Part shown: in pieces, positions 3,758 to 37,134 of the stretch
Layout of the letters: each line of letters opens with the position of its first letter
Position numbering within the stretch: the first letter of the stretch is position 1
NCBI RefSeq assembly: GCF_050920415.1
Contig: NZ_CP169309.1
Source of the DNA: Escherichia coli
GTDB taxonomy: Bacteria; Pseudomonadota; Gammaproteobacteria; Enterobacterales; Enterobacteriaceae
Length of the DNA stretch: 64,000 nucleotides
Direction: 5' to 3' (one strand)
Program-made: the position numbers and the translations under genes
Notes under the pieces: model-generated
Databases searched by the model: none
Seen by the model: the letters and a program-made list of their open reading frames with translations, nothing else
What the model was told of the DNA's origin: nothing

Positions 3758-6424
3758 ATGGAACCTTTTAAATATATATGTCATTACTGGGGGAAATCCT
3801 CAAAAAGCCTGACGAAAGGAAATGATATTCATCTGTTGATTTATCATTGCCTGGATGTTGCAGCTGTTGCAGATTGCTGGTGGGATCAATCAGTCGTACT
3901 ACAAAATGCTTTTTGCCGAAATGAAATGCTATCAAAACAGAAGGTGAAAGCCTGGCTGTTATTTTTCATTGCCCTTCATGATATCGGAAAGTTTGATATA
4001 CGATTCCAATATAAATCAGCAGAAAGTTGGCTGAAATTAAATCCTGCAACGTCATCACTTAATGGTCCATCAACACAAATGTGCCGTAAATTTAATCATG
4101 GTGCAGCCGGTCTGTATTGGTTTAACCAGGATTCACTTTCAGAGCAATCTCCCGGGGATTTTTTCAGTTTTTTTGATGCCGCTCCTCATCCTTATGAGTC
4201 CTGGTTTCCTTGGGTAGAGGCCGTTACAGGACATCATGGTTTTATATTACATTCCCAGGATCAAGATAAGTCGCGTTGGGAAATGCCAGCTTCTCTGGCA
4301 TCTTATGCTGCGCAAGATAAACAGGCTCGTGAGGAGTGGATATCTGTACTCGAAGCATTATTTTTAACACCAGCCGGGTTATCTATAAACGATATACCAC
4401 CTGATTGTTCATCATTGTTAGCAGGTTTTTGCTCGCTTGCTGACTGGTTAGGTTCCTGGACCACAACGGATACCTTTCTATTCAAAGAAGATGCACCTTC
4501 AGGCATACAAGCGCTAAGAAAATATTTTCAGGATAGACAACAGGATGCGTGTCGGGTACTGGAGTTGAGTGGCCTTGTATCAAATAAGCGTAGTTATGAC
4601 GGCGTACATGCCTTACTGGACAATGGCTATCAACCAAGACAATTACAGGTGTTGGTTGATGCTCTTCCTACAGCTCCCGGGCTGACGGTGATTGAGGCAC
4701 CTACGGGATCAGGTAAAACCGAAACAGCGCTGGCCTATGCCTGGAAACTTATTGACCAACAACTTGCGGATAGTGTTATTTTTGCCCTCCCTACACAAGC
4801 TACTGCAAATGCAATGCTCAGCAGAATGGAAGCGAACGCGAGCCGTTTATTTACCTCCCCAAATCTTATTCTTGCTCATGGTAATTCACGTTTTAACCAC
4901 CTTTTTCAATCAATAAAATCACGCGCATTTACTGAGCAGGGGCAAGAAGAAGCGTGGGTTCAGTGTTGCCAATGGTTGTCACAAAGCAATAAGAAAGTGT
5001 TTCTTGGGCAAATAGGAGTTTGCACGATTGATCAGGTGTTGATATCGGTATTGCCAGTTAAACACCGCTTTATCCGTGGTTTGGGAATTGGTCGAAGTGT
5101 TTTAATTGTTGATGAAGTTCATGCTTACGACACGTATATGAACGGCTTGCTGGAGGCTGTGCTCAAGGCTCAGGCTGATGTGGGGGGGAGTGTTATTCTT
5201 CTTTCCGCAACTCTACCAATGAAACAAAAACAGAAACTTCTGGATACTTATGGTCTGCATACAGATCCAGAGGAAAATAACTCCGCATATCCACTCATTA
5301 ACTGGCGAGGTGTGAATGGTGCGCAACGTTTTGATCTGTTAGCTCATCCAGAACAACTCCCGCCCCGCTTTTCAATTCAGCTAGAACCTATTTATTTAGC
5401 TGACATGTTACCTGACCTTACGATGTTAGAGCGAATGATCGCAGCGGCAAACGCGGGTGCACAAGTCTGTCTTATTTGCAATTTGGTTGACGTTGCACAA
5501 GTATGCTACCAACGGCTAAAGGAGCTAAATAACACGCAAGTAGATATAGATTTGTTTCATGCACGCTTTACGCTGAACGATCGTCGAGAAAAAGAGAATC
5601 GTGTTATTAGCGATTTCGGAAAAAATGGGGATCGAAATGTTGGACGAATACTTGTCGCCACGCAAGTCGTGGAACAATCGCTCGACGTTGATTTTGATTG
5701 GTTAATTACCCAGCATTGTCCCGCAGATTTGCTTTTCCAACGATTGGGCCGTTTACATCGTCATCATCGCAAATATCGTCCCGCTGGTTTTGAGATTCCT
5801 GTTGCCACCATTTTGCTGCCTGATGGCGAGGGTTACGGACGACATGAGCATATTTATAGCAACGTTAGAGTCATGTGGCGGACGCAGCAACATATTGAGG
5901 AACTTAATGGAGCATCCTTATTTTTCCCTGATGCTTACCGGCAATGGCTGGATAGCATTTACGATGATGCGGAAATGGATGAGCCAGAATGGGTCGGCAA
6001 TGGCATGGATAAATTTGAAAGCGCCGAGTGTGAAAAAAGGTTCAAGGCTCGTAAGGTTCTGCAGTGGGCTGAAGAATATAGCTTGCAGGATAACGATGAA
6101 ACCATTCTTGCGGTAACGAGGGATGGGGAAATGAGCCTGCCATTATTGCCTTATGTACAAACGTCTTCAGGTAAACAACTGCTCGATGGCCAGGTCTACG
6201 AGGACCTAAGTCATGAACAGCAGTATGAGGTGTTAGCACTTAATCGCGTCAATGTACCCTTCACTTGGAAACGTAGTTTTTCTGAAGTAGTAGATGAAGA
6301 TGGGTTACTTTGGCTGGAAGGGAAACAGAATCAGGATGGATGGATCTGGCAGGGTAATAATATTGTTATTACCTACACTCGGGATGAAGGGATGACCAGA
6401 GTCATCCCTGCAAATCCCAAATAA
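3758..6424 (+). CDS. cas3: Cas3 HD nuclease / DEAD-box helicase (type I-E)
   Basis: 888-aa ORF with an N-terminal HD domain (HDIGK), a Walker A motif (APTGSGKT) and a DEVH box; immediately precedes casABCDE. Confidence 0.95.
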   Translation: MEPFKYICHYWGKSSKSLTKGNDIHLLIYHCLDVAAVADCWWDQSVVLQNAFCRNEMLSKQKVKAWLLFFIALHDIGKFDIRFQYKSAESWLKLNPATSSLNGPSTQMCRKFNHGAAGLYWFNQDSLSEQSPGDFFSFFDAAPHPYESWFPWVEAVTGHHGFILHSQDQDKSRWEMPASLASYAAQDKQAREEWISVLEALFLTPAGLSINDIPPDCSSLLAGFCSLADWLGSWTTTDTFLFKEDAPSGIQALRKYFQDRQQDACRVLELSGLVSNKRSYDGVHALLDNGYQPRQLQVLVDALPTAPGLTVIEAPTGSGKTETALAYAWKLIDQQLADSVIFALPTQATANAMLSRMEANASRLFTSPNLILAHGNSRFNHLFQSIKSRAFTEQGQEEAWVQCCQWLSQSNKKVFLGQIGVCTIDQVLISVLPVKHRFIRGLGIGRSVLIVDEVHAYDTYMNGLLEAVLKAQADVGGSVILLSATLPMKQKQKLLDTYGLHTDPEENNSAYPLINWRGVNGAQRFDLLAHPEQLPPRFSIQLEPIYLADMLPDLTMLERMIAAANAGAQVCLICNLVDVAQVCYQRLKELNNTQVDIDLFHARFTLNDRREKENRVISDFGKNGDRNVGRILVATQVVEQSLDVDFDWLITQHCPADLLFQRLGRLHRHHRKYRPAGFEIPVATILLPDGEGYGRHEHIYSNVRVMWRTQQHIEELNGASLFFPDAYRQWLDSIYDDAEMDEPEWVGNGMDKFESAECEKRFKARKVLQWAEEYSLQDNDETILAVTRDGEMSLPLLPYVQTSSGKQLLDGQVYEDLSHEQQYEVLALNRVNVPFTWKRSFSEVVDEDGLLWLEGKQNQDGWIWQGNNIVITYTRDEGMTRVIPANPK

Positions 6425-6838
6425 CTTCGGGAATGATTGGTATCAATGACGATAACAAGACCAATAACGGTTTATCCCTACTTAAGTAGGGAAGGTGCAC
6501 AATGTACATCTTCTTTTAATTTCCCGGTATGAGATTTTATATTCACAGTATGAATATTTTATGTAATAAAATTTATGGTAATTATTATAACTAAAAATTT
6601 CTTTGATAATAAAACGAATAACTTGCAGATTTGAAATGCATGCATTATTGTCTTTAAACAATTCAACACATCTTAATATATGCATAGGTTAATTGTATTA
6701 AACCAATGAATATATTTTTGCAGTGAATGTGATTATTGAATTAATTACGCCGTATTTTTTCTTTGTTTTTACCGATAACGGAAGTGTGCCGACGTATAGA
6801 AATGCAGGAGAAATGTCGGAGCATATGAAGGAGAACAA
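6425..6838 (+). promoter_or_regulatory. AT-rich cas3-casA intergenic region carrying the Cascade operon promoter (H-NS/LeuO-regulated in K-12)
   Basis: 414-bp strongly AT-rich non-coding stretch directly upstream of casA. The promoter assignment comes from published K-12 work, not from exact motif positions read here. Confidence 0.45.
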
Positions 6839-8347
6839 ATGAATTTGCTTATTGATAACTGGATCCCTGTACGCCCGCGAAACGGGGGGAAAGTCCAAAT
6901 CCTAAATCTGCAATCGCTATACTGCAGTAGAGATCAGTGGCGGTTAAGTTTGCCCCGTGACGATATGGAACTGGCCGCTTTAGCACTGCTGGTTTGCATT
7001 GCACAAATTATCGCCCCGGCAAAAGATGACGTTGAATTTCGACATCGCATAATGAATCCGCTCACTGAAGATGAGTTTCAACGACTCATCGCGCCGTGGA
7101 TAGATATGTTCTACCTTAATCACGCAGAACATCCCTTTATGCAGACCAAAGGTGTCAAAGCAAATGATGTGACTCCAATGGAAAAACTATTGGCAGGGGT
7201 AAGCGGCGCGACGAATTGTGCATTTGTCAATCAACCGGGGCAGGGTGAAGCATTATGTGGTGGATGCACTGCGATTGCGTTATTCAACCAGGCGAATCAG
7301 GCACCTGGTTTTGGTGGTGGCTTTAAAAGCGGTTTACGTGGAGGAACACCTATAACCACCTTCGTATGTGGGATCGATCTTCGCTCGACGGTGTTACTCA
7401 ATGTCCTCACAATACCTCGTCTTCAAAAACAATTTCCCAATGAATCAAATACGGAAAACCAACCTACCTGGATTAAGCCTGTCAAGCCCAATGAATCTGT
7501 GCCAGCTTCGTCAATTGGGTTTGTCCGTGGCTTATTCTGGCAACCAGCGCATATTGAATTATGCGATCCCATTGGGATTGGTAAATGTTCTTGCTGTGGA
7601 CAGGAAAGCAATTTGCGTTATACAGGTTTTCTTAAGGAAAAATTTACCTTTACAGTTAATGGGCTATGGCCCCATCCGCATTCCCCTTGTCTGGTAACAG
7701 TCAAGAAAGGGGAGGTTGAGGAAAAATTTCTTGCTTTCACCACCTCCGCACCATCATGGACGCAAATCAGCCGAGTTGTGGTAGATAAGATTATTCAAAA
7801 TGAAAATGGAAATCGCGTGGCGGCGGTTGTGAATCAATTCAGAAATATTGCGCCGCAAAGTCCTCTTGAATTGATTATGGGGGGATATCGTAATAATCAA
7901 GCATCTATTCTTGAACGACGTCATGATGTGCTGATGTTTAATCAGGGGTGGCAACAATACGGCAATGTTATAAACGAAATAGTGACTGTTGGTTTGGGGT
8001 ATAAAACAGCCTTACGCAAGGCGTTATATACTTTTGTGGAAGGTATTAAAAATAAAGACTTTAAAGGGGCTGGAGTCTCTGTTCATGAGACTGCAGAAAG
8101 GCATTTCTATCGACAGAGTGAATTATTAATTCCCGATGTATTGGCGAATGTTAATTTTTCCCAGGCTGATGAGGTAATAGCTGATTTACGAGACAAACTT
8201 CATCAATTGTGTGAAATGCTATTTAATCAATCTGTAGCTCCCTATGCACATCATCCTAAATTAATAAGCACATTAGCACTCGCCCGCGCCACGCTATACA
8301 AACATTTACGGGAGTTAAAACCGCAAGGAGGGCCATCAAATGGCTGA
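6839..8347 (+). CDS. casA: Cascade large subunit Cse1/CasA
   Basis: 502-aa ORF at the head of the Cascade operon; start MNLLIDNWIPVRPR matches Cse1. Confidence 0.95.
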   Translation: MNLLIDNWIPVRPRNGGKVQILNLQSLYCSRDQWRLSLPRDDMELAALALLVCIAQIIAPAKDDVEFRHRIMNPLTEDEFQRLIAPWIDMFYLNHAEHPFMQTKGVKANDVTPMEKLLAGVSGATNCAFVNQPGQGEALCGGCTAIALFNQANQAPGFGGGFKSGLRGGTPITTFVCGIDLRSTVLLNVLTIPRLQKQFPNESNTENQPTWIKPVKPNESVPASSIGFVRGLFWQPAHIELCDPIGIGKCSCCGQESNLRYTGFLKEKFTFTVNGLWPHPHSPCLVTVKKGEVEEKFLAFTTSAPSWTQISRVVVDKIIQNENGNRVAAVVNQFRNIAPQSPLELIMGGYRNNQASILERRHDVLMFNQGWQQYGNVINEIVTVGLGYKTALRKALYTFVEGIKNKDFKGAGVSVHETAERHFYRQSELLIPDVLANVNFSQADEVIADLRDKLHQLCEMLFNQSVAPYAHHPKLISTLALARATLYKHLRELKPQGGPSNG

Positions 8348-8822
8348 TGAAATTGATGCAATGGCTTTATATCGAGCCTGGCAACAGCTGGATAACGGAG
8401 CATGTGCGCAAATTAGACGTGTTTCAGAACCTGATGATTTACGCGATATCCCTGCGTTTTATCGGTTGGTGCAACCTTTTGGTTGGGAAAACCTGCGTCA
8501 CCAACAGGCTCTTTTGCGCATGGTGTTTTGCCTGAGCGCAGGAAAGAATGTCATCCGACATCAGGATAAAAAACCGGAGCAAACAATAGGTATCTCGTTG
8601 GGAAGAGCTTTAGCCAATAGTGGAAGAATTAACGAGCGCCGTATCTTCCAATTGATTCGGGCTGACAGAACAGCCGATATGGTCCAGTTACGTCGATTGC
8701 TTGCTCACGCCGAACCCGTACTTGACTGGTCATTAATGGCCCGGATGTTGACCTGGTGGGGAAAGCGCGAACGCCAGCAACTTCTGGAAGATTTTGTATT
8801 GACCACAAACAAAAATGCGTAA
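8340..8822 (+). CDS. casB: Cascade small subunit Cse2/CasB
   Basis: 160-aa ORF overlapping the casA 3' end by 8 nt; position and size match Cse2. Confidence 0.93.
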   Translation: MADEIDAMALYRAWQQLDNGACAQIRRVSEPDDLRDIPAFYRLVQPFGWENLRHQQALLRMVFCLSAGKNVIRHQDKKPEQTIGISLGRALANSGRINERRIFQLIRADRTADMVQLRRLLAHAEPVLDWSLMARMLTWWGKRERQQLLEDFVLTTNKNA

Positions 8823-8834
8823 GGAAACCTCTCA

Positions 8835-9926
8835 ATGTCTAATTTTATTAATATCCATGTCCTGATCTCTCACAGCCCTTCATGTCTGAACCGCGACGAT
8901 ATGAACATGCAGAAAGACGCTATTTTCGGCGGGAAAAGGCGAGTAAGAATTTCAAGTCAAAGCCTTAAACGTGCGATGCGTAAAAGTGATTATTACGCAC
9001 AAAATATTGGTGAATCCAGTCTCAGAACAATTCATCTTGCACAATTACGTGATGTTCTTCGGCAAAAACTTGGTGAACGTTTTGAGCAAAAAATCATCGA
9101 TAAGACATTAGCTCTGCTCTCCGGTAAATCAGTTGATGAAGCTGAAAAGATTTCTGCCGATGCGGTTACTCCCTGGGTTGTGGGAGAAATAGCCTGGTTC
9201 TGTGAGCAGGTTGCAAAAGCAGAGGCAGATAATCTGGATGATAAAAAGCTGCTCAAAATTCTTAAGGAAGATATTGCCGCTATCCGTGTGAATTTACAGC
9301 AGGGGGTTGATATTGCGCTTAGCGGAAGAATGGCAACCAGCGGCATGATGAGTGAGTTGGGAAAAGTTGATGGTGCAATGTCCATTGCGCACGCGATCAC
9401 GACCCATCAGGTTGATTCTGATATTGACTGGTTCACCGCCGTAGATGATTTACAGGAACAAGGTTCTGCACATCTGGGAACACAGGAATTTTCATCGGGT
9501 GTTTTTTATCGTTATGCCAACATTAACCTTGCTCAACTTCAGGAAAATTTAGGCGGCGCCTCCTGGGAGCAGGCTCTGGAAATTGCAACCCATGTTGTTC
9601 ATATGCTGGCAACAGAGGTCCCTGGAGCAAAACAGCGTACTTATGCCGCTTTTAACCCTGCGGAGATGGTAATGGTTAATTTCTCCGATATGCCACTTTC
9701 TATGGCAAATGCTTTTGAAAAAGCGGTGAAAGCGAAAGATGGCTTTTTGCAACCGTCTATACAGGCGTTTAATCAATATTGGGATCGCGTTGCGAATGGC
9801 TATGGTCTGAACGGAGCTGCTGCGCAATTTAGCTTGTCTGACATGGACCCAATTACTGCTCAGGTTAAACAAATGCCTACTTTAGAACAGTTAAAATCCT
9901 GGGTTCGTAATAATGGCGAGGCGTGA
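8835..9926 (+). CDS. casC: Cascade backbone subunit Cas7/CasC
   Basis: 363-aa ORF in operon position 3. Confidence 0.95.
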
Positions 9927-9928
9927 AC

Positions 9929-10603
9929 ATGAGATCTTATTTGATCTTGCGGCTTGCTGGGCCAATGCAAGCCTGGGGGCTGCCGACCTTTGAAGGAACG
10001 CGACCTACCGGAAGATTTCCGACCCGAAGCGGGTTATTAGGGCTACTCGGGGCTTGTCTTGGGATCCAACGTGATGATACTTCTTCATTACAGGTGTTAT
10101 CAGAGAGTGTGCAATTTGCAGTGCGTTGCGATGAACTCATTCTTGACGATCGTCGTGTGTCTGTAACGGGGTTGCGTGATTACCATACAGTCCTTGGAGC
10201 GCGAGAAGATTACCGTGGTTTGAAAAGTCATGAAACGATTCAAACATGGCGCGAATATTTATGTGATGCCTCCTTTACCGTCGCTATCTGGTTAACACCA
10301 CAGGCAACGATGGTTATGTCAGAACTTGAAAAAGCAGTATTAAAGCCTCGGTATACACCGTATCTGGGGCGGAGGAGTTGTCCGCTAACACAACCGCTTT
10401 TTCTCGGGACATGTCAGGCGTCGGATCCTCAGAAGGCGCTATTAAATTATGAGCCCGTTGGCGGCGATATTTATAGTGAGGAATCAGTTGACGGGCATCA
10501 TTTAAAATTTACGGTGCGCGACGAACCGATGATCACCTTACCTCGACAATTTGCTTCCCGGGAATGGTATGTGATTAAAGGAGGTATGGATGTATCTCAG
10601 TAA
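9929..10603 (+). CDS. casD: Cascade subunit Cas5/CasD
   Basis: 224 aa from the ATG at 9929 (the ORF track begins 2 codons earlier at a GTG); start MRSYLILRLAGPMQAWG. Confidence 0.9.
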   Translation: MRSYLILRLAGPMQAWGLPTFEGTRPTGRFPTRSGLLGLLGACLGIQRDDTSSLQVLSESVQFAVRCDELILDDRRVSVTGLRDYHTVLGAREDYRGLKSHETIQTWREYLCDASFTVAIWLTPQATMVMSELEKAVLKPRYTPYLGRRSCPLTQPLFLGTCQASDPQKALLNYEPVGGDIYSEESVDGHHLKFTVRDEPMITLPRQFASREWYVIKGGMDVSQ

Positions 10604-11189
10604 AATCATCATTGCCAGGGCCTGTAGCAGGGATCTTTACCAACTTCACCAGGGATTATGGCATTTATTTCCAAATAGACCAGATGCTGCTCGTGATTTT
10701 CTTTTTCATGTTGAGAAGCGAAACACACCAGAAGGCTGTCATGTTTTATTGCAGTCAGCGCAAATGCCTGTTTCAACTGCCGTTGCGACAGTCATTAAAA
10801 CTAAACAGGTTGAATTTCAACTTCAGGTTGGTGTTCCACTCTATTTTCGGCTTCGGGCAAATCCGATCAAAACTATTCTCGACAATCAAAAGCGTCTGGA
10901 CAGTAAAGGGAATATTAAACGCTGTCGGGTTCCGTTAATAAAAGAAGCAGAACAAATCGCGTGGTTGCAACGTAAATTGGGCAATGCGGCGCGCGTTGAA
11001 GATGTGCATCCCATATCGGAACGGCCACAGTATTTTTCTGGGGAAGGTAAAAATGGAAAAATCCAAACGGTTTGCTTTGAAGGTGTGCTCACCGTCAATG
11101 ACGCATCAGCGTTAATGGATCTTATACAGCAAGGTATTGGGCCAGCCAAATCGATGGGATGTGGTTTGCTATCTTTGGCTCCACTGTGA
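10590..11189 (+). CDS. casE: Cas6e/CasE pre-crRNA endoribonuclease
   Basis: 199-aa ORF overlapping the casD 3' end; Cas6e family. Confidence 0.95.
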   Translation: MYLSKIIIARACSRDLYQLHQGLWHLFPNRPDAARDFLFHVEKRNTPEGCHVLLQSAQMPVSTAVATVIKTKQVEFQLQVGVPLYFRLRANPIKTILDNQKRLDSKGNIKRCRVPLIKEAEQIAWLQRKLGNAARVEDVHPISERPQYFSGEGKNGKIQTVCFEGVLTVNDASALMDLIQQGIGPAKSMGCGLLSLAPL

Positions 11190-11204
11190 TTGAGGTGTAA
11201 TAAA

Positions 11205-12408
<1,204 letters not shown>

Positions 12409-12513
12409 AAACAAAGAATTAGCTGATCTTTAATAATAAGGAAATGTTACATTAAGGTTGGTGGGTTGTTTTTATGGGAAAAAATGCTTTAAGAACAAAT
12501 GTATACTTTGAGA
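12409..12513 (+). promoter_or_regulatory. CRISPR leader (AT-rich; array promoter and integration-proximal region)
   Basis: About 105-bp AT-rich sequence between the cas2 stop and the first repeat. Confidence 0.7.
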
Positions 12514-13701
12514 GAGTTCCCCGCGCCAGCGGGGATAAACCGCTCGCGTATACTCTCTGCCAACGTCTCCAGATGAGTTCCCCGCGCCAGCGGGGATAAA
12601 CCGGCGGGATTATCGGCACTGACGTCGGCGCTGTGGAGTTCCCCGCGCCAGCGGGGATAAACCGGGTCGCTTCCATATATGAACCTTGAGGATTAGGAGT
12701 TCCCCGCGCCAGCGGGGATAAACCGGTTCCATGCACTGCCCGCAGTGTCAGCCGTACGAGTTCCCCGCGCCAGCGGGGATAAACCGGTAAATCATACGTT
12801 GGCATCAGTATTTTTCTCGAGTTCCCCGCGCCAGCGGGGATAAACCGACTCCGCGCCATTTGAGAATTCTCAGTTCTGCGAGTTCCCCGCGCCAGCGGGG
12901 ATAAACCGCTACTGCTGTCAGACGGCAGGGCAAAACAGCGGAGTTCCCCGCGCCAGCGGGGATAAACCGGACGTGCGGATGCTGTTTCTGGTTTTACCTC
13001 CGAGTTCCCCGCGCCAGCGGGGATAAACCGTTTTTTCTCAGCGTCTGGCAGAGCTAATCGCCGAGTTCCCCGCGCCAGCGGGGATAAACCGGTGTCAAAT
13101 TTCATGTAATTGATGATCCAGCTGAGTTCCCCGCGCCAGCGGGGATAAACCGGGTATTTCTCGTTAACACGGTCGTATCAAAACGAGTTCCCCGCGCCAG
13201 CGGGGATAAACCGAGGGGTTGCAACCATAGCCCTTAGTTGATTGCGAGTTCCCCGCGCCAGCGGGGATAAACCGCCAGTGGATTTTAATAAACTCTCCAG
13301 CGAGCAGAGTTCCCCGCGCCAGCGGGGATAAACCGTTCGCCACGTCAGGCGTGATTTCCTGCACTGAGAGTTCCCCGCGCCAGCGGGGATAAACAGGGCG
13401 CGTCTGCGCCCGCTAGGACTCGTGTCAAGAGTTCCCCGCGCCAGCGGGGATAAACCGGGAGTTCAGACATAGGTGGAATGATGGACTACGAGTTCCCCGC
13501 GTTAGCGGGGATAAACCGCCCGGTAGCCAGGTTTGCAACGCCTGAACCGAGAGTTCCCCGCGCCAGCAGGGATAAATCGGCAACGACGGTGAGATTTCAC
13601 GCCTGACGCTGGTGTTCCCCGCATCAGCGGGGATAAACCGGGCGCACTGGATGCGATGATGGATATCACTTAGAATTCCCCGCCCCTGCGGTAGAACTCC
13701 C
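12514..13701 (+). CRISPR. Type I-E CRISPR array: 19 regular 29-bp repeats plus one degenerate terminal repeat, 19 spacers of 32 bp
   Basis: Repeat GAGTTCCCCGCGCCAGCGGGGATAAACCG recurs with an exact 61-bp period from 12514 to 13612. Repeats at 13368, 13490, 13551 and 13612 carry point variants, and a heavily degenerate terminal repeat sits at 13673-13701. Confidence 0.97.
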
Positions 13702-22586: not shown

Positions 22587-23726
22587 ATGAGCGCGGGAAG
22601 CCCAAAATTCACCGTTCGCCGCATTGCGGCTTTGTCACTGGTTTCGCTATGGCTGGCAGGCTGTTCTGACACTTCAAATCCACCGGCACCGGTCAGCTCC
22701 GTTAATGGCAATGCGTCTGCAAACACCAATTCTGGTATGTTGATTACGCCGCCGCCGAAAATGGGGACGACGTCTACAACGCAGCAACCGCAAATTCAGC
22801 CGGTACAGCAGCCACAAATTCAATCTGCACAACAACCGCAAATCCAGCCGGTGCAGCCAGTTGCTCAGCCGCCGGTACAGATGGAAAACGGACGCATCGT
22901 CTACAACCGTCAGTATGGGAACATTCCGAAAGGCAGTTATAGCGGCAGTACATACACCGTGAAAAAAGGCGACACACTTTTCTATATCGCCTGGATTACT
23001 GGCAATGATTTCCGTGACCTTGCTCAGCGCAACAATATTCAGGCACCATACGCGCTGAATGTAGGTCAGACCTTACAGGTGGGTAATGCTTCCGGTACGC
23101 CAATCACTGGTGGAAATGCCATTACCCAGGCCGATGCAGCAGAGCAAGGAGTTGTGATCAAGCCTGCACAAAATTCCACCGTTGCTGTTGCGTCGCAACC
23201 GACAATTACGTATTCTGAGTCTTCGGGTGAACAGAGTGCTAACAAAATGTTGCCGAACAACAAGCCAACTGGGACCACGGTCACAGCGCCTGTAACGGTA
23301 CCAACAGCAAGCACAACCGAGCCGACTGTCAGCAGTACATCAACCAGTGCGCCTATCTCCACCTGGCGCTGGCCGACTGAGGGCAAAGTGATCGAAACCT
23401 TTGGTGCTTCTGAGGGGGGCAACAAGGGGATTGATATCGCAGGCAGCAAAGGACAGGCAATTATCGCGACCGCAGATGGCCGCGTTGTTTATGCCGGTAA
23501 CGCGCTGCGCGGCTACGGTAATCTGATTATCATCAAACATAATGATGATTACCTGAGTGCCTACGCCCATAACGACACAATGCTGGTCCGGGAACAACAA
23601 GAAGTGAAGGCGGGGCAAAAAATAGCGACTATGGGTAGCACCGGAACCAGTTCAACACGCTTGCATTTTGAAATTCGTTACAAGGGGAAATCCGTAAACC
23701 CGCTGCGCTATTTGCCGCAGCGATAA
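22587..23726 (+). CDS. nlpD: Lipoprotein NlpD (LysM domain plus degenerate M23 peptidase domain; activator of cell-wall amidase)
   Basis: 379-aa ORF with a lipobox (LAGCS), a Q/P-rich repeat linker, LysM and a C-terminal LytM domain. Confidence 0.95.
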
Positions 23727-23788: not shown

Positions 23789-24781
23789 ATGAGTCAGAAT
23801 ACGCTGAAAGTTCATGATTTAAATGAAGATGCGGAATTTGATGAGAACGGAGTTGAGGTTTTTGACGAAAAGGCCTTAGTAGAAGAGGAACCCAGTGATA
23901 ACGATTTGGCCGAAGAGGAACTGTTATCGCAAGGGGCCACACAGCGTGTGTTGGACGCGACTCAGCTTTACCTTGGTGAGATTGGTTATTCACCACTGTT
24001 AACGGCCGAAGAAGAAGTTTATTTTGCGCGTCGCGCACTGCGAGGAGATGTTGCCTCCCGCCGCCGGATGATCGAGAGTAACTTGCGTCTGGTGGTAAAA
24101 ATTGCCCGCCGTTATGGCAATCGTGGTCTGGCTTTGCTGGATCTTATCGAAGAGGGCAACCTGGGGCTGATCCGCGCGGTAGAGAAGTTTGACCCGGAAC
24201 GTGGTTTCCGCTTCTCAACATACGCAACCTGGTGGATTCGCCAAACGATCGAACGGGCGATTATGAACCAAACCCGTACTATTCGTTTGCCGATTCACAT
24301 CGTAAAGGAGCTGAACGTTTACCTGCGAACCGCACGTGAGTTGTCCCATAAGCTGGACCACGAACCAAGTGCGGAAGAGATCGCAGAGCAGCTGGATAAG
24401 CCAGTTGATGACGTCAGCCGTATGCTTCGTCTTAACGAGCGCATTACCTCGGTAGACACCCCGCTGGGTGGAGATTCCGAAAAAGCGTTGCTGGACATCC
24501 TGGCCGATGAAAAAGAAAACGGCCCGGAAGATACCACGCAAGATGACGATATGAAACAAAGCATCGTCAAATGGCTGTTCGAACTGAACGCCAAACAGCG
24601 TGAAGTGCTGGCACGTCGATTCGGTTTGCTGGGGTACGAAGCGGCAACACTGGAAGATGTAGGTCGTGAAATTGGCCTCACCCGTGAACGTGTTCGCCAG
24701 ATTCAGGTTGAAGGCCTGCGCCGTTTGCGCGAAATCCTGCAAACGCAGGGGCTGAATATCGAAGCGCTGTTCCGCGAATAA
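23789..24781 (+). CDS. rpoS: RNA polymerase sigma factor sigma-S (sigma-38)
   Basis: 330 aa from the ATG at 23789 ([17 protein letters not shown]...); sigma-70 family regions 2-4; codon 33 is GAG (Glu). Confidence 0.96.
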
Positions 24782-24796
24782 GTAAGCATCTGTCAG

Positions 24797-24834
24797 AAAG
24801 GCCAGTCTCTTATGAGGCTGGCCTTTTTCTTTTG
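24797..24834 (+). terminator. Rho-independent terminator of rpoS
   Basis: Hairpin ggccag-N12-ctggcc followed by tttttctttt, 16 nt after the rpoS stop. Confidence 0.65.
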
Positions 24835-24901
24835 TATGGGGAGTTGGTGTGTTTCGTCGCCTGGATAAGACACGTCAGCGTCCCATCCGGCAATCAACAT
24901 C

Positions 24902-25309
24902 CTATTTGCTCATCATCTTGCGCACCAGCTGCATAAACAGCTCCTGCTCTTCTCCACTCAAACGCCCCAAAAATTCCTCATCCACACTGTCGCCAATCGG
25001 TATCGCCGCAGCAAGTACCTTTTCTCCTTCGGCAGTCAGCCAGACAAAGCGTCGCCGCTTATCAGCGGTGTCATGTTCACGTCTGACTAAGCCACGATTT
25101 TCCATTCTTGCCAACATTTCTGCCAGCGTTGCTTTGGTGCTGACGGCTGCTTCCATCAGTGCCACCTGTTCGATACCAGGTTTATCAGCAATGGCGCGCA
25201 TCACCGCGTACTGTGGTTTGGTCAGGTCAGGTAACTCGTGCTGCCAGCGGGCCGTATGCTGCTGAAAAAGCTGTCGTAACTGATGGAACGCTTTATTTCG
25301 TAACGCCAT
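24902..25309 (-). CDS. MarR/SlyA-family transcriptional regulator
   Basis: 135-aa ORF with winged-helix MarR-like sequence; divergent from the decarboxylase operon. Confidence 0.8.
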   Translation of the reverse strand: MALRNKAFHQLRQLFQQHTARWQHELPDLTKPQYAVMRAIADKPGIEQVALMEAAVSTKATLAEMLARMENRGLVRREHDTADKRRRFVWLTAEGEKVLAAAIPIGDSVDEEFLGRLSGEEQELFMQLVRKMMSK

Positions 25310-25455
25310 GTAAACTCCGGGCTAATTCTCTGTCGCTATCATAGCGGTTTTTCAGTGACGAAGAAGATGTTGTTACTTTTCAATCCTTGCCGCTGTGGAA
25401 ATGAAGGAGTATGTTAATAATAACGTTCGTATACGAACAATTAAGATAGTAAGCA

Positions 25456-26049
25456 ATGAAACTGATCGTCGGGATGACAGGGGCTACCGGTGCGCCTCTT
25501 GGTGTGGCATTACTGCAAGCGCTGCGGGAGATGCCGAATGTCGAGACTCATCTGGTGATGTCGAAGTGGGCGAAAACCACTATTGAACTGGAAACGCCTT
25601 ACAGCGCTCGCGATGTTGCCGCCCTCGCTGACTTCAGCCATAACCCGGCGGATCAGGCTGCGACCATCTCTTCCGGCTCCTTTCGTACCGACGGCATGAT
25701 CGTTATTCCATGCAGTATGAAAACGCTCGCCGGTATCCGCGCTGGTTACGCCGATGGTCTCGTAGGGCGCGCGGCGGACGTCGTGCTCAAAGAAGGCCGC
25801 AAACTGGTGCTGGTGCCGCGTGAAATGCCGCTTAGCACCATCCATCTCGAAAATATGCTCGCACTTTCGCGCATGGGCGTGGCGATGGTGCCGCCGATGC
25901 CTGCCTTTTATAACCATCCCGAAACGGTAGATGACATTGTCCACCACGTGGTAGCCCGCGTGCTGGATCAATTTGGCCTCGAACATCCTCACGCCAGGCG
26001 CTGGCAAGGGTTGCCGCAGGCCCGGAATTTTTCTCAGGAGAATGAATAA
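25456..26049 (+). CDS. ecdB: UbiX/Pad1-like flavin prenyltransferase (decarboxylase B subunit)
   Basis: 197-aa ORF (MKLIVGMTGATGAPLGVALLQAL...), UbiX family. The ecdB name is as recalled for the E. coli O157 homologue. Confidence 0.85.
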   Translation: MKLIVGMTGATGAPLGVALLQALREMPNVETHLVMSKWAKTTIELETPYSARDVAALADFSHNPADQAATISSGSFRTDGMIVIPCSMKTLAGIRAGYADGLVGRAADVVLKEGRKLVLVPREMPLSTIHLENMLALSRMGVAMVPPMPAFYNHPETVDDIVHHVVARVLDQFGLEHPHARRWQGLPQARNFSQENE

Positions 26050-27476
26050 TGGCATTTGATGATTTACGCAGCTTTTTACAGGCGCTCGACGACCAGGGGC
26101 AATTGCTGAAAATCAGCGAAGAGGTGAATGCCGAGCCGGATCTGGCTGCCGCTGCCAACGCCACCGGGCGTATCGGCGACGGCGCGCCCGCGCTGTGGTT
26201 TGATAATATTCGCGGCTTTACCGATGCGCGCGTGGCGATGAACACCATCGGCTCCTGGCAGAACCACGCGATTTCCCTCGGGCTGCCACCGAACACACCG
26301 GTTAAAAAACAGATTGATGAGTTTATCCGCCGCTGGGATAACTTTCCCATTGCCCCGGAACGCCGCGCCAATCCTGCCTGGGCGCAGAACACCGTCGATG
26401 GCGACGAGATCAATTTGTTCAATATCCTGCCGCTGTTTCGTTTAAACGATGGCGATGGCGGTTTCTATCTCGACAAAGCGTGCGTGGTTTCCCGCGATCC
26501 GCTCGATCCGGATAACTTCGGCAAGCAGAACGTCGGCATCTATCGCATGGAAGTGAAGGGTAAGCGTAAGCTCGGCCTGCAACCGGTGCCGATGCACGAT
26601 ATCGCCCTGCATCTGCATAAAGCAGAAGAGCGCGGTGAAGATCTGCCGATTGCGATCACGCTCGGTAACGATCCGATCATCACCCTGATGGGCGCCACCC
26701 CGCTGAAATATGATCAATCGGAGTACGAAATGGCGGGCGCACTACGCGAAAGCCCGTACCCGATCGCCACCGCCCCGCTGACCGGTTTTGATGTGCCGTG
26801 GGGCTCGGAGGTGATCCTCGAAGGGGTAATCGAAAGCCGTAAACGCGAGATTGAAGGGCCGTTCGGTGAATTTACCGGCCACTACTCCGGCGGGCGCAAC
26901 ATGACCGTGGTGCGCATCGATAAAGTCTCTTACCGCACCAAACCGATTTTTGAATCGCTCTATCTCGGTATGCCGTGGACCGAAATCGACTACCTGATGG
27001 GGCCAGCCACCTGTGTGCCGCTGTATCAGCAACTGAAAGCCGAGTTCCCGGAAGTGCAGGCGGTGAACGCTATGTACACCCACGGCCTGCTGGCGATTAT
27101 CTCCACCAAAAAACGCTATGGCGGCTTTGCCCGCGCAGTGGGCCTGCGTGCGATGACCACGCCGCACGGTCTGGGTTATGTGAAGATGGTGATTATGGTC
27201 GATGAAGACGTTGACCCGTTCAACCTGCCGCAGGTGATGTGGGCGCTCTCGTCGAAAGTGAACCCGGCAGGCGATCTGGTGCAACTGCCGAATATGTCCG
27301 TGCTGGAACTCGACCCAGGCTCAAGCCCGGCGGGGATCACCGATAAGCTGATTATCGACGCCACCACGCCTGTCGCCCCGGACAACCGTGGCCACTACAG
27401 CCAGCCGGTGGTGGACTTACCGGAAACCAAAGCCTGGGCTGAAAAACTGACCGCTATGCTGGCCGCACGTAAATAA
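26049..27476 (+). CDS. ecdC: UbiD-family reversible hydroxyarylic acid decarboxylase (C subunit)
   Basis: 475-aa UbiD-like ORF, start overlapping the upstream stop. Confidence 0.85.
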   Translation: MAFDDLRSFLQALDDQGQLLKISEEVNAEPDLAAAANATGRIGDGAPALWFDNIRGFTDARVAMNTIGSWQNHAISLGLPPNTPVKKQIDEFIRRWDNFPIAPERRANPAWAQNTVDGDEINLFNILPLFRLNDGDGGFYLDKACVVSRDPLDPDNFGKQNVGIYRMEVKGKRKLGLQPVPMHDIALHLHKAEERGEDLPIAITLGNDPIITLMGATPLKYDQSEYEMAGALRESPYPIATAPLTGFDVPWGSEVILEGVIESRKREIEGPFGEFTGHYSGGRNMTVVRIDKVSYRTKPIFESLYLGMPWTEIDYLMGPATCVPLYQQLKAEFPEVQAVNAMYTHGLLAIISTKKRYGGFARAVGLRAMTTPHGLGYVKMVIMVDEDVDPFNLPQVMWALSSKVNPAGDLVQLPNMSVLELDPGSSPAGITDKLIIDATTPVAPDNRGHYSQPVVDLPETKAWAEKLTAMLAARK

Positions 27477-27486
27477 GGAGAACAAG

Positions 27487-27723
27487 ATGATTTGTCCACG
27501 TTGTGCCGATGAACAGATTGAAGTGATGGCGAAATCGCCGGTGAAAAATGTCTGGACGGTCTACCAGTGCCAGCATTGCCTTTATACCTGGCGCGATACT
27601 GAACCGCTACGCCGCACCAGCCGCGAACATTATCCCGAAGCCTTCCGCATGACGCAGAAAGATATTGATGACGCGCCGATGGTGCCGAGCATCCCGCCGC
27701 TGCTGGCGGAAGGTAAGCGCTAA
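27487..27723 (+). CDS. ecdD: Small decarboxylase-associated subunit D with a Cys-rich zinc-ribbon-like motif
   Basis: 78-aa ORF with CPRC...CQHC motifs, immediately downstream of the UbiD-like gene as in bsdBCD/vdcBCD-type operons. Confidence 0.75.
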   Translation: MICPRCADEQIEVMAKSPVKNVWTVYQCQHCLYTWRDTEPLRRTSREHYPEAFRMTQKDIDDAPMVPSIPPLLAEGKR

Positions 27724-27726
27724 ATA

Positions 27727-27757
27727 AAAGGTCCGATGCCCATCGGACCTTTTTATT
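27727..27757. terminator. Bidirectional rho-independent terminator between the convergent ecdD and ygbN genes
   Basis: Perfect hairpin aaaaggtccgatg-ggc-catcggacctttt with A-run and T-run flanks. Confidence 0.6.
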
Positions 27758-27761
27758 AAGG

Positions 27762-29126
27762 TCAAATTACCGCCCATACGCACCAGGTAATTAAGAATCC
27801 GGTAAAACCGAGAATGGTCGTTAACACTGTCCAGGTTTTCAGACCGTCTGCTACCGACAACCCCAGATATTTGGTCACAATCCAGAACCCTGAGTCATTA
27901 ATATGTGACGCGCCAAGCCCACCAAAGCAGGCTGCCAGCGTCACCAATACGCACTGAATCGGATTCAATCCCATCACCGCTTCTGAGAGTAACCCGCCGG
28001 TTGTCAGGATTGCTACGGTTGCTGACCCCTGCGATGCACGCAGCGCCAGTGAAATAATAAATGCGGCTGGTAACAGAGGCAGGTCAATCATTTGTAGCAT
28101 GTTGGCAAGGGCTTTGCCGACGCCCGATTCCACCAGCACTTTGCCAAATACCCCTCCAGCACCAGTAACCAAAATCACTACCGCCGCAGTGGGAAGGGCT
28201 GAGCCCATAATGTCGCTGGTGTGTTGTAAGCTCCAGCCGCGACGTAAAGCCAATAACCAGAATGCCAGCACCAGCGCAATCATTAGAGCTACCATTGGTG
28301 AGCCGATCAGCTGTAGCGTACCAAGCAGGGGATGCGAAGGCGGCATCAGTGTTGCGGAAACCGTACCCGCCATGATAATCGCGATAGGAATAACAATTAG
28401 CGAGGTGACCAGCGCGACGCCCGGTGGATTTATTTTATCGCTTAATTTTGTCGCGCCTTCCTCACTGGCCGGAGCCAGTTGCATCTGTTCCAGTACTTCC
28501 ACCGACATCGCATATTGGCGCTTATTGATTATTTTCGCTGCAAAGTAGCCAACAATCCCTACGGGAATAGAAATCGCAATACCGATGATGGTTAGCCAGC
28601 CGATGTCTGCGTGGAGTAACCCCGCTGCGGCGACAGGGCCTGGATGCGGCGGTACCGCCACATGAACAGTTAGCATGATTCCAGCGACAGGCAGGCCAAA
28701 TTTGAGTGGCGATATTTTGGCAACCTTGGCAAAACCGTAAATGATTGGCGCAAGAATAATAAAGCCGACATCAAAGAAGACGGGAATACCGAGGAAGAAC
28801 GCTGCCAGAGTCAGCGCAGCGATAGTTCGTTTGTCACCTAACTTGCGACTGAAATAATTAGCCAGTGACTCTGCACCACCAGAGTGTTCGATCATACGCC
28901 CCAGCATAGCGCCCAGACCAATAATAATAGTGACGGAACCAAGCACACCGCCCATCCCGGCGATCATCACTTTACCCACTTCGCCCGCCGGTATACCCGC
29001 CGCAAGTGCGACTAACAGGCTGACGAGGAGCAGAGCAACGAATGGTTGTACCTTTGCCTTGATGACCAGCAGCAACAGCATGATTACGCCAGTTAACGCA
29101 ATGCATAACAATGTAATTGTGGACAT
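27762..29126 (-). CDS. ygbN: GntP-family permease
   Basis: 454-aa polytopic membrane ORF, GntP family. Confidence 0.9.
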   Translation of the reverse strand: MSTITLLCIALTGVIMLLLLVIKAKVQPFVALLLVSLLVALAAGIPAGEVGKVMIAGMGGVLGSVTIIIGLGAMLGRMIEHSGGAESLANYFSRKLGDKRTIAALTLAAFFLGIPVFFDVGFIILAPIIYGFAKVAKISPLKFGLPVAGIMLTVHVAVPPHPGPVAAAGLLHADIGWLTIIGIAISIPVGIVGYFAAKIINKRQYAMSVEVLEQMQLAPASEEGATKLSDKINPPGVALVTSLIVIPIAIIMAGTVSATLMPPSHPLLGTLQLIGSPMVALMIALVLAFWLLALRRGWSLQHTSDIMGSALPTAAVVILVTGAGGVFGKVLVESGVGKALANMLQMIDLPLLPAAFIISLALRASQGSATVAILTTGGLLSEAVMGLNPIQCVLVTLAACFGGLGASHINDSGFWIVTKYLGLSVADGLKTWTVLTTILGFTGFLITWCVWAVI

Positions 29127-34572: not shown

Positions 34573-37134
34573 TTACACCAGACTCTTCAAGCGATAAATC
34601 CATTCCAGCGCCTGACGCGGGGTAAGTGAATCCGGGTCAAGATTTTCCAGCGCTTCGACCGCTGGCGACGTTTCTTCCGGTACTGACAGCAAAGACATTT
34701 GCGTACCATCCACTTGCGTAGCGGCGGCGTTCGGCGAAATGCTTTCCAGTTCACGCAGTTTTTGCCGTGCGCGCTTAATCACCTCTTTTGGCACGCCCGC
34801 CAGAGCAGCAACCGCCAGGCCGTAGCTTTTGCTCGCCGCGCCATCCTGCACACTGTGCATAAAGGCGATGGTGTCGCCGTGCTCCAGTGCATCGAGATGC
34901 ACGTTGGCGACGCCTTCCATTTTCTCCGGCAGTTGAGTCAGTTCAAAGTAGTGGGTAGCAAACAACGTCAACGCTTTAATCTTATTCGCCAGATTTTCAG
35001 CGCACGCCCATGCCAGCGACAGACCATCGTAAGTGGACGTTCCGCGCCCAATCTCATCCATCAACACCAGGCTGTACTCCGTGGCGTTATGCAGAATATT
35101 GGCGGTTTCGGTCATCTCCACCATAAAGGTTGAACGCCCGGATGCCAGATCGTCAGCCGCGCCCACACGGGTAAAGATACGATCGATAGGTCCAATCTCG
35201 ACTTTTTGCGCCGGTACGTAGCTGCCGATATAGGCCATCAGCGCAATCAGTGCGGTCTGGCGCATATAGGTACTTTTACCGCCCATATTCGGACCGGTGA
35301 TGATCAACATGCGACGCTGCGGCGACAGGTTCAGCGGGTTAGCGATAAACGGCTCATTCAGTACCTGTTCAACCACCGGATGGCGACCTTCGGTAATGCG
35401 AATGCCCGGTTTATCAATGAAGGTCGGGCAGGTGTAGTTCAGGGTATAGGCTCGTTCCGCCAGGTTTACCAGTACGTCGAGTTCTGCCAGTGCGCTCGCG
35501 CTCTGTTGCAACGCTTCCAGATGCGGCAACAGCAGGTCGAACAACTCTTCATAAAGCTGTTTTTCCAGTGCCAGCGCTTTACCTTTCGAGGTGAGTACTT
35601 TGTCTTCATACTCTTTTAGCTCTGGAATAATGTAGCGTTCGGCGTTTTTCAGCGTCTGACGACGCATATAGTTGATGGGTGCCAGATGGCTTTGTCCACG
35701 GCTAATCTGAATGTAATAACCATGCACCGCGTTAAAGCCGACTTTCAGCGTGTCCAGGCCGGTACGTTCACGCTCGCGAACTTCCAGACGCTCCAAATAA
35801 TCTGTCGCGCCGTCAGCCAGCGCGCGCCACTCATCCAGCTCTTCGTTATAGCCTGATGCGATAACACCACCGTCGCGTACCAGCACCGGCGGTGTGTCGA
35901 TGATTGCTCGCTCCAGCAGATCGCGCAGCTCTGCAAACTCGCCCATTTTCTCACGCAGCGCCTGTACCGGTGCACTATCGACACTTTCTAACTGCGCGCG
36001 TAGTTCTGGCAGTTGCTGGAAAGCGTGACGCATACGGGCCAGATCGCGTGGGCGAGCAGTCCGTAAAGCCAGACGTGCCAGAATACGTTCCAGGTCGCCG
36101 ACCTGACGCAGTACCGGCTGCAGCTCAGCGGTGAAATCCTGCAATGCGCCAATAGTTTGCTGGCGCTCAAGCAACACGCGGGTATCGCGCACTGGCATAT
36201 GCAGCCAGCGCTTCAGCATACGACTCCCCATCGGCGTTACAGTGCAGTCGAGCACGGAAGCCAGCGTGTTTTCCGCACCGCCCGCCAGGTTCTGGGTAAT
36301 TTCCAGGTTACGGCGCGTCGCGGCATCCATAATGATACTGTCCTGCTCACGTTCCATAGTGATAGAACGAATGTGCGGCAGAGTCGTACGTTGAGTATCT
36401 TTCGCATACTGCAACAGACAACCGGCGGCACAAAGTCCGCGCGGCGCGTTCTCGACGCCAAAACCGACCAGATCGCGAGTGCCAAATTGTAGATTCAACT
36501 GCTGGCGCGCGGTGTCGATTTCAAACTCCCACAGCGGACGACGACGCAGGCCGCGACGACCTTCAATCAGCGACATTTCAGCAAAATCTTCTGCATACAG
36601 CAGTTCCGCCGGATTAGTGCGTTGCAGTTCTGCCGCCATCGTTTCGCGGTCAGCCGGTTCGCTCAGGCGAAAACGACCGGAACTGATATCCAGCGTCGCG
36701 TAGCCGAAACCTTTACTGTCCTGCCAGATAGCCGCCAGCAGGTTGTCCTGACGCTCCTGCAACAGCGCTTCATCGCTGATGGTGCCCGGCGTAACGATAC
36801 GCACAACTTTGCGCTCAACCGGACCTTTGCTGGTCGCCGGATCGCCAATTTGTTCGCAGATGGCAACGGACTCGCCCTGATTCACCAGTTTGGCGAGGTA
36901 GTTTTCCACCGCATGGTATGGAATCCCCGCCATCGGGATCGGCTCTCCCGCGGAAGCGCCGCGTTTGGTCAGTGAAATATCCAGCAGTTGTGACGCACGT
37001 TTTGCGTCGTCATAAAACAGTTCGTAAAAGTCACCCATCCGGTAGAATAGCAGGATCTCGGGATGCTGGGCTTTCAGCTTGAGATACTGCTGCATCATGG
37101 GCGTATGGGCATCGAAATTTTCTATTGCACTCAT
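34573..37134 (-). CDS. mutS: DNA mismatch repair protein MutS
   Basis: 853-aa ORF with a Walker A motif (GPNMGGKST); start [17 protein letters not shown]. Confidence 0.97.

Follow-up and report, generated by a model that had tools for sequence, protein, structure and literature searches.

A 2.9-kb segment at the 3' end of rpoS, carrying slyA/hosA, pad1 and yclC, was reportedly described in Escherichia coli in 2000. In EPEC a 2.9-kb segment with hosA, pad1 and yclC lies downstream of rpoS (PMC5491219), and 'pattern IV' of the o454-nlpD region contains kpdD, kpdC, kpdB and slyA together with ygb genes, as in EPEC E2348/69 (PMC4209514). The EcdCD enzyme of E. coli O157:H7 is tabulated in a review among the 4-hydroxybenzoate decarboxylases, with 4-hydroxybenzoate as its best substrate (PMC6644310). 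For the regulator, the KD of HosA for 4-HBA is 4.7 uM, and on binding it HosA leaves the DNA (PMC6261655); this release driven by 4-hydroxybenzoate has been published for HosA of strain UMN026. A bioRxiv paper, citing Roy and Ranjan 2016, states that HosA represses both the operon and itself and that its site lies downstream of the transcription start. Further afield, VdcCD and BsdBCD of Sedimentibacter hydroxybenzoicus and Bacillus subtilis form a vanillate and 4-hydroxybenzoate decarboxylase (7AE4; PMC8379154).

The window analysed here is a stretch of 64,000 nucleotides of E. coli DNA. Between rpoS and ygbN, positions 24782-27761 hold four intact genes in the open reading frame list, a MarR-family gene on the minus strand and, divergent from it, three adjacent plus-strand genes in the order UbiX-like, UbiD-like and small subunit. 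We put the probability at roughly 0.93 that this module is the E. coli operon for non-oxidative hydroxyarylic acid decarboxylase under HosA control (hosA-ecdBCD, also slyA-pad1-yclC-yclD, kpdRBCD or vdcBCD), located in the 2.9-kb variable segment already known 3' of rpoS. RefSeq uses the same product names for a locus that is near-identical, with 1 mismatch over 2980 bp. The features of the locus are as follows.

24781: stop codon of rpoS
24795-24828, plus strand: intrinsic terminator hairpin of rpoS, 15-pair stem, from the terminator scan
24858-24893, minus strand: REP-like palindrome directly 3' of the hosA stop codon
24902-25309, minus strand: hosA (older slyA, kpdR), 135 aa, MarR-family repressor, released by 4-hydroxybenzoate according to the literature
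25335-25347: second palindrome, CGCTATCATAGCG, in the hosA leader, found by sequence scan
25387-25415, plus strand: putative sigma-70 promoter of ecdBCD, TTGCCG-17 nt-TATGTT, read from the sequence
25425-25438: HosA operator, perfect 14-bp palindrome GTTCGTATACGAAC, between the putative -10 and the ecdB start codon, an exact match
25456-26049, plus strand: ecdB (pad1, vdcB, kpdB), 197 aa, predicted UbiX-type flavin prenyltransferase and prFMN maker
26049-27476, plus strand: ecdC (yclC, vdcC, kpdC), 475 aa, predicted UbiD-family prFMN-dependent reversible decarboxylase
27487-27723, plus strand: ecdD (yclD, vdcD, kpdD), 78 aa with four cysteines, predicted zinc-ribbon activator subunit
27726-27753, both strands: bidirectional terminator hairpin common to ecdD and the convergent ygbN, from direct folding (inverted repeat I1)
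27762: stop codon of ygbN

All three enzyme genes score above the NCBI curated cut-offs for subunits B, C and D of non-oxidative hydroxyarylic acid decarboxylase. In NCBIfam, EcdB reaches 312 bits for VdcB (NF041206, cut-off 290) and 246 bits for TIGR00421 (cut-off 109), EcdC 790 bits for VdcC (NF041204, cut-off 650) and EcdD 120 bits for VdcD (NF041205, cut-off 30). Pfam places EcdB in Flavoprotein (PF02441, E 2e-44) and finds UbiD_N, UbiD and UbiD_C in EcdC. Together with the open reading frames, these matches bear out the earlier note, which from the sequence had described a MarR/SlyA-like regulator divergent from a UbiX/UbiD/small-subunit operon of the bsdBCD/ecdBCD type and had named UbiX and UbiD signatures in an HMM search as one test. 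EcdB is identical at 196 of 197 residues to PDB entry 1SBZ, listed there as 'Probable aromatic acid decarboxylase', which we take to be the structure of O157:H7 Pad1. EcdC aligns over 469 residues with chain A of 7AE4 (E 2e-160, 538 bits), and its segments NVGxYR, MHDIA and EGPFGEF are identical to those of ShVdcC in that alignment; with PMC8379154, we take these to be the catalytic Glu-Arg-Glu segments of UbiD. EcdD aligns to ShdD of 7AE4, with Cys3, Cys6, Cys28 and Cys31, arranged in two CxxC knuckles, falling on C3, C6, C28 and C31 of ShVdcD, the four cysteines that bind its zinc (PMC8379154). The ecdC start overlaps the ecdB stop at 26049 and the spacer between ecdC and ecdD is 10 nt; we infer that the three genes are co-transcribed.

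The regulator matches PDB 8AGA, 'Transcriptional regulator HosA', over residues 1-134 (E 2e-82). It also matches MarR-family models, all below their own curated cut-offs, with no HosA model among those listed. The operator 14-mer is present in a published HosA binding-site probe (PMC6261655 supplement); it is unchanged in four E. coli alleles and in Salmonella and carries one change in Klebsiella. The second palindrome could be a site for hosA autoregulation, and its core CTATCATAG is largely kept in Salmonella and Klebsiella amid a diverged spacer. Another operator-like site, at 51656-51669, has 2 mismatches; as 3 of 100 shuffles give 2 matches, it was rejected as being no better than chance. 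The TTGCCG and TATGTT hexamers of the putative ecdBCD promoter are both conserved in E. coli, Salmonella and Klebsiella. A consensus sigma-70 promoter scan over 24600-27900 called no site, so the position given for this promoter comes only from conservation across genera. With the promoter placed there, the transcript would begin near 25422, a few bases before the operator. The 146-nt spacer between hosA and ecdB folds no better than its shuffles (z -0.83) and an Rfam search of it returned no family; nothing there points to a riboswitch or leader RNA.

In the scheme that follows, the enzyme activity, ligand and repression are taken from the literature; our analysis itself supplies the genes with their order and families, their near-identity to orthologues that are solved or characterised, the operator and its conservation, the terminators and the genome distribution. 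When the substrate is absent, a HosA dimer on GTTCGTATACGAAC, just downstream of the promoter, would block transcription. Binding of 4-hydroxybenzoate would take HosA off the operator. EcdB would then prenylate reduced FMN to prFMN, and EcdC, with prFMN bound, would reversibly remove CO2 from 4-hydroxybenzoate to give phenol. The second substrate tabulated for O157:H7 EcdCD (PMC6644310) is probably vanillate; if EcdC accepts it, the product would be guaiacol. The four-cysteine zinc ribbon of EcdD is expected to bind EcdC beside the catalytic Glu-Arg-Glu loops and to be required for activity. By analogy with what is reported for the O157:H7 orthologue EcdCD, decarboxylation of 4-hydroxybenzoate or vanillate would be reversible and oxygen-sensitive. 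In E. coli the pathway may serve detoxification, the production of phenol, or carboxylation when oxygen is absent. The earlier note had presumed a hydroxyaromatic acid as substrate, which holds, but had called the substrate not known, which does not, since that of the O157:H7 orthologue is published as 4-hydroxybenzoate (PMC6644310). The substrate and regulator-binding tests it suggested are likewise already in the literature for orthologues.

The rpoS terminator hairpin folds at -25.8 kcal/mol (z -4.0). It is kept in K-12, just to the left of the variable segment, and in the alignment similarity to K-12 stops at about 24828. The palindrome at 24858-24893, which in our own view of the sequence resembles REP elements, folds on the minus strand at -26.8 kcal/mol (z -4.35; none of 200 shuffles as good). 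It is missing from K-12 and variable between strains, and is probably a 3' hairpin or terminator of hosA. At the other end of the segment, the 27726-27753 hairpin combines a 12-bp stem with a 4-nt loop, is preceded by an A-run and followed by a T-run, and folds on both strands (-18.7 kcal/mol, z -4.3, and -17.3 kcal/mol, z -3.6). The terminator scan missed it, because the T-run was apparently absorbed into the stem, and direct folding confirmed it. The perfect bidirectional terminator that had been proposed at 27727-27757 is therefore real, to within a few bases. However, the same hairpin is found in K-12 as part of the conserved 3' end of ygbN, outside the variable segment, and so it is no marker of the junction with variable DNA, as had also been proposed. 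We also considered a deletion of the ygb cluster of the O157 type by terminator-to-terminator recombination; the junction sequences give it no support.

The segment is present in 2380 of 5426 complete E. coli genomes (about 44%). An identical ygbN junction, the 'long' configuration to which the window strain belongs, occurs in 1601 of the 5426 (about 30%). The window strain has the complete ygbN-ygbI cluster beside the module, as the earlier note had seen, a combination also published as 'pattern IV'. The genome survey and the literature confirm that the rpoS-mutS interval is polymorphic, and the earlier note was correct that K-12 lacks the segment, as in MG1655 rpoS and ygbN are separated by 93 bp, compared with 2980 bp in the window. 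Most carriers are about 94-95% identical in DNA to the window segment. The E. coli copies are all chromosomal, at one place per genome at the median; 'plasmid' matches in this species are records of 4.8-4.9 Mb, that is, mislabelled chromosomes, and plasmid carriage was rejected. Among the plasmid records, the true replicon matches are to Pantoea, Rahnella and Streptomyces megaplasmids.

Whether the segment was gained or lost is the question on which an alternative survives best. It is possible, although rather improbable in our judgement, that some E. coli lineages recently acquired the module horizontally between rpoS and ygbN, with K-12 retaining the original empty site. The G+C content of ecdB and ecdC (0.56-0.60) lies above that of the flanks (about 0.50-0.53), and the case for horizontal transfer from Shigella has been made in a bioRxiv paper. 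Vibrio, Pseudomonas and Actinobacteria have VdcC homologues with 78-88% identity, which shows that the family crossed phyla at some time, and the Salmonella module is inverted relative to rpoS. Against a recent arrival, the regulator-BCD module lies within the same rpoS-mutS interval in both Salmonella and Klebsiella, and carriage in E. coli is frequent, always chromosomal and, at the median, at one place per genome. The segment contains no integrase or transposase, its four open reading frames accounting for it; no tRNA gene was found in the window and no flanking direct repeats at the segment edges. In K-12 the terminators on either side are still there, along with about 8 bases similar to the end of ecdD, which fits a deletion. 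Herbelin et al. 2000 are also said to have concluded that the long region is ancestral. Because the module shares its position in Salmonella and Klebsiella and shows no marks of mobility, an old resident segment lost from K-12 by deletion is most likely. The term 'islet' used in the earlier note implies an insertion; the module's presence in this interval in Salmonella and Klebsiella and the lack of mobility genes, tRNA genes and direct repeats favour long residence and deletion from K-12. Carriage at 44% and the probable loss from K-12 make the module an ordinary one. We met no contrary evidence for its identification as hosA-ecdBCD.

Within the segment, ecdC is under strong purifying selection, with dN of 0.0037 compared with dS of 0.243 among five E. 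coli alleles (dN/dS about 0.015). Among the same alleles its synonymous divergence of 0.24 compares with 0.06 for rpoS and 0.008 for ygbN. The EcdC of the window differs by 3-5 residues from those of other E. coli alleles. A 1.2-kb patch of ecdC at 26000-27200 has a match of at least 99% in one of the 5426 genomes, the near-twin MFDS1022581, with the others at 96.3% or below. We rejected the idea that the whole allele is foreign to E. coli, since any two E. coli ecdC alleles are 56-93 nt apart; it is only the patch that is near-unique. We would suggest, tentatively and with a good deal of doubt, that ecdC, like nearby mutS, has undergone repeated import of divergent alleles or long-term upkeep of old ones. 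If this goes beyond the known mutS-rpoS mosaicism, the decarboxylase itself might be under selection, or the donor might lie beyond the E. coli sampled so far. The unusual synonymous polymorphism of ecdC and the near-unique patch are the only mildly new point here.

Two other readings concern the enzymes, and we regard both as very improbable. In the first, ecdB and ecdC would be spare copies of the ubiquinone UbiX and UbiD acting on 3-polyprenyl-4-hydroxybenzoate. The superfamilies are shared, with matches to E. coli UbiD structures at E 5e-48, and EcdB would make the very cofactor on which UbiD depends, which renders cross-supply of prFMN plausible. However, EcdC scores 176 bits for the UbiD equivalog NF008175, failing its cut-off of 788, compared with 790 for VdcC (cut-off 650); a VdcD subunit, which the ubiquinone pathway does not use, is present, and the inducer is free 4-hydroxybenzoate. 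The second, a phenylacrylic (ferulic/cinnamic) acid decarboxylase of the Pad1/Fdc1 type or an AroY-type protocatechuate decarboxylase, draws on the old label 'pad1: phenylacrylic acid decarboxylase', which is still repeated, and on detectable homology to Fdc1 and AroY structures, but those chains reach only 82-100 bits compared with 538 for the VdcC of 7AE4, Pad1/UbiX proteins are now known to be prenyltransferases and not decarboxylases, and the table in PMC6644310 puts EcdCD under the 4-hydroxybenzoate decarboxylases, with 4-hydroxybenzoate best.

The hosA-ecdBCD module is therefore already known, its segment, regulator HosA, operator, inducer and enzyme substrates all having been published. 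Since about 2000 it has served as a textbook case of mosaicism in the mutS-rpoS region, and it carries little weight as a discovery. Structures of two of the module's proteins are published, and HosA is already in use in 4-hydroxybenzoate biosensors. The value of the present analysis is a clean annotation, in which the old pad1 and slyA labels are corrected.

Compared with the O157:H7 and EPEC segment (slyA/hosA, pad1/ecdB, yclC/ecdC, yclD/ecdD), the window has the same genes, order, position and operator, with allelic differences only. The ygbN-ygbI cluster co-occurs with the module in pattern IV of EPEC E2348/69, as in the window, whereas O157-type strains lack the ygb cluster beside it. The C subunits of Enterobacter, Klebsiella, Citrobacter and Salmonella are 96-98% identical to EcdC. 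In Klebsiella and Salmonella a MarR-type gene is divergent from BCD, as in the window; unlike in the window, DUF4440, MFS and LysR genes separate the regulator from rpoS in Klebsiella, and Salmonella carries the module in the opposite orientation. The Sedimentibacter and Bacillus clusters share the B-C-D architecture, and their C subunit is a distant orthologue of EcdC, roughly 55-60% identical by eye, with identical catalytic segments. Their D subunit is far more diverged (E 2e-10) but has the same four zinc-ribbon cysteines, and these clusters belong to Gram-positive hosts, with no HosA-type regulator described with them. The UbiX and UbiD enzymes of ubiquinone biosynthesis have their two superfamilies and the prFMN chemistry in common with EcdB and EcdC. 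Unlike UbiD, by analogy with its characterised orthologues, the locus described here would use free hydroxybenzoates, need a D subunit and be inducible by its substrate.

Between the rpoS stop codon (24781) and the ygbN stop codon (27762), ORF calling revealed four intact open reading frames. The features of this region are as follows.

24795-24828, rpoS terminator, which folds far better than shuffled controls
24858-24893, REP-like palindrome directly after the hosA stop, with a strong fold on the hosA strand
24902-25309, minus strand, hosA, 135-aa ORF
25456-26049, plus strand, ecdB, 197-aa ORF
26049-27476, plus strand, ecdC, 475-aa ORF, its start overlapping the ecdB stop
27487-27723, plus strand, ecdD, 78-aa ORF, ten bases past ecdC
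27726-27753, bidirectional hairpin, both strands of which fold far better than shuffled controls

The reading frames and their family matches agree with the earlier note, which had described a MarR regulator divergent from a UbiX/UbiD/small-subunit operon. NCBIfam assigned the operon products to subunits B, C and D of the non-oxidative hydroxyarylic acid decarboxylases, with EcdB scoring 312 bits against a curated cut-off of 290, EcdC 790 against 650 and EcdD 120 against 30, and MarR-family models matched HosA, the minus-strand protein. UbiD proper was rejected as the identity of EcdC, the corresponding model giving 176 bits against a cut-off of 788. Pfam placed EcdB in Flavoprotein and EcdC in UbiD_N, UbiD and UbiD_C, and the Pfam search matched no family to EcdD. 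As EcdB and EcdC carry signatures from both databases, the proposed UbiX/UbiD identity cannot be dismissed for want of them.

Each of the four proteins has a match among solved structures. EcdB, whose type of protein produces the prenylated flavin cofactor, is identical at 196 of 197 residues to PDB 1SBZ ('Probable aromatic acid decarboxylase'), which we take to be the Pad1 structure of O157:H7. HosA was matched by 'Transcriptional regulator HosA' (8AGA and six other entries, E 2e-82). EcdC aligns with the VdcC chain of 7AE4 (E 2e-160), and the NVGxYR, MHDIA and EGPFGEF segments are identical. EcdD aligns with the ShdD chain of 7AE4, and its Cys3, Cys6, Cys28 and Cys31 fall at the positions of the four residues that ligate zinc in ShVdcD; VdcD, a zinc ribbon, binds VdcC beside the catalytic ERE loops and is needed for activity (PMC8379154).

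Within the hosA-ecdB spacer we observed a perfect palindrome, GTTCGTATACGAAC, at 25425-25438, 17 bases upstream of the ecdB start codon. The same 14-mer lies within a published HosA probe. The HosA protein of strain UMN026 recognises a palindromic site of 14 bp, from which 4-hydroxybenzoate (KD 4.7 µM) releases it, and biosensors have already been built on it (PMC6261655). When four E. coli alleles were aligned with Salmonella and Klebsiella, the palindrome was invariant except for one base in Klebsiella and the TTGCCG-17 nt-TATGTT pair just upstream (25387-25415) was conserved, the remaining spacer being heavily diverged. From this pair and the palindromes we infer a putative promoter at TTGCCG/TATGTT, with a start point a few bases upstream of the operator; a strict consensus promoter scan did not call it. 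This order agrees with the published description of HosA: as relayed by a citing paper, Roy and Ranjan (2016) report that HosA represses both the decarboxylase operon and itself, from a site downstream of the transcription start. A second palindrome in the hosA leader, CGCTATCATAGCG (25335-25347), has a core partly kept in Salmonella and Klebsiella and is unlike the known HosA operator. Folding of the spacer gave no significant RNA structure, and Rfam no match.

In K-12 MG1655 the segment is missing, as the earlier note had stated. The rpoS-ygbN spacer there is only 93 bp, made up of the rpoS terminator and the 27726-27753 hairpin with about eight bases between them, and the variable DNA amounts to a net 2887 bp, from about 24828 to about 27715-27722. 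The terminator that the note placed at 27727-27757 is a real hairpin, folding on both strands, but it is kept in K-12 and so lies outside the variable DNA. The REP-like palindrome at 24858-24893 lies close to the left end of the DNA missing from K-12 and is very variable among strains; the 120-bp rpoS-hosA spacer shows up to 23 mismatches between strains.

Counting as carriers those genomes with at least 80% of the segment, we found it in 2380 of 5426 complete E. coli genomes, always on the chromosome and at a median of one place per genome. The same ecdD-ygbN junction occurs in 1601 genomes, and O157-type strains, for lack of the ygb cluster, have pphB directly next to the segment. Salmonella Senftenberg (locus L007, 4833-8712) carries the regulator-BCD module between ygbI and rpoS, in inverted orientation with respect to rpoS. 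In Klebsiella pneumoniae (locus L008, 1201-10847) the module is found in the rpoS-mutS interval; a hok gene follows it, and three extra genes (DUF4440, MFS, LysR) separate it from rpoS. A recent insertion is the less favoured explanation, as the same module occupies this interval in both genera, K-12 keeps a remnant, and ORF, tRNA and repeat scans found neither tRNA nor mobility genes at the segment and no direct repeats flanking it. Taken with the distribution, these observations therefore favour an old resident segment that was deleted in K-12. The G+C content is raised in ecdB and ecdC, and homologues 78-88% identical occur in distant phyla, which shows that the decarboxylase family moved horizontally at some earlier time. 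In P0072, a 624-aa E. coli database protein, the first 233 or so residues of RpoS continue in frame into EcdC at about its residue 86, which implies that a deletion of some 2 kb arose naturally and took out the rpoS end, hosA, ecdB and the ecdC start.

The window segment differs from that of E. coli MFDS1022581 by one base and from every other carrier by 2-6%. Strain N96 has nearly identical flanks, and all 56 of its ecdC differences fall within about 26000-27200. This 1.2-kb patch is matched at 99% or more only in MFDS1022581 (next best 96.3%, 5426 complete E. coli genomes), and probably came in by recombination from a lineage not yet sampled. Such divergence is not peculiar to the window, as all pairs among five E. 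coli ecdC alleles are 56-93 nt apart, with only 2-6 amino acid differences.

Mean dS among E. coli alleles
ecdC, 0.243 (dN 0.0037)
mutS, 0.216
ecdD, 0.128
ecdB, 0.086
hosA, 0.084
rpoS, 0.063
nlpD, 0.057
ygbN, 0.008

Among the five alleles the dS of ecdC and mutS (34573-37134) is about 4 times that of rpoS and nlpD and about 30 times that of ygbN, with minimal amino-acid change. The high dS of ecdC, beside its low dN and few replacements, shows that EcdC is under strong purifying selection, and the locus shares in the mosaicism and frequent recombination already known for the interval.

Most differences between the window and the otherwise near-identical MFDS1022581 lie upstream of nlpD and may be located in the CRISPR array (12514-13700; about 20 repeats, 61-bp spacing). 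This array follows an ORF run from 3758, which we interpret as a full type I-E cas operon (ORF run and array together, 3758-13700), its 888-aa ORF at 3758-6424 being taken as cas3. TRF reported a 122-bp period at 12818-13152, reflecting alternate spacers that resemble each other. Upstream of the 888-aa ORF, Rfam matched the sok antitoxin RNA at 3523-3678, scoring 97 bits against a gathering score of 59; this is presumably the region's chromosomal hok/sok locus. A 24-bp tandem repeat (3.2 copies, 22782-22857) within nlpD gives rise to the QQPQIQPV repeats in the linker of the lipoprotein. rpoS (23789-24781) is intact and its codon 33 specifies Glu (VEEEPSD), as is common among natural isolates, Gln33 being the K-12 variant. 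Two alleles of its terminator loop, CTTATG and CAAGCG, occur across strains.

The observation in the earlier note is thus confirmed and its interpretation supported, but the module had been described before, regulation and substrates included. In EPEC, a 2.9-kb segment containing hosA, pad1 and yclC is reported downstream of rpoS (PMC5491219). Four patterns of the rpoS-proximal region were defined in a survey of 510 strains; Pattern IV, the E2348/69 type, contains kpdD, kpdC, kpdB and slyA and also keeps the ygb genes (PMC4209514). EcdCD of E. coli O157:H7 is classed with the 4-hydroxybenzoate decarboxylases, has 4-hydroxybenzoate as its best substrate, and accepts a second compound in common with the vanillate/4-hydroxybenzoate enzyme of B. 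subtilis (review, PMC6644310), which we infer to be vanillate. For orthologues, the work that the note had proposed is already in print: tests of whether the regulator binds the spacer and whether 4-hydroxybenzoate or vanillate is decarboxylated, and a comparison across E. coli groups.
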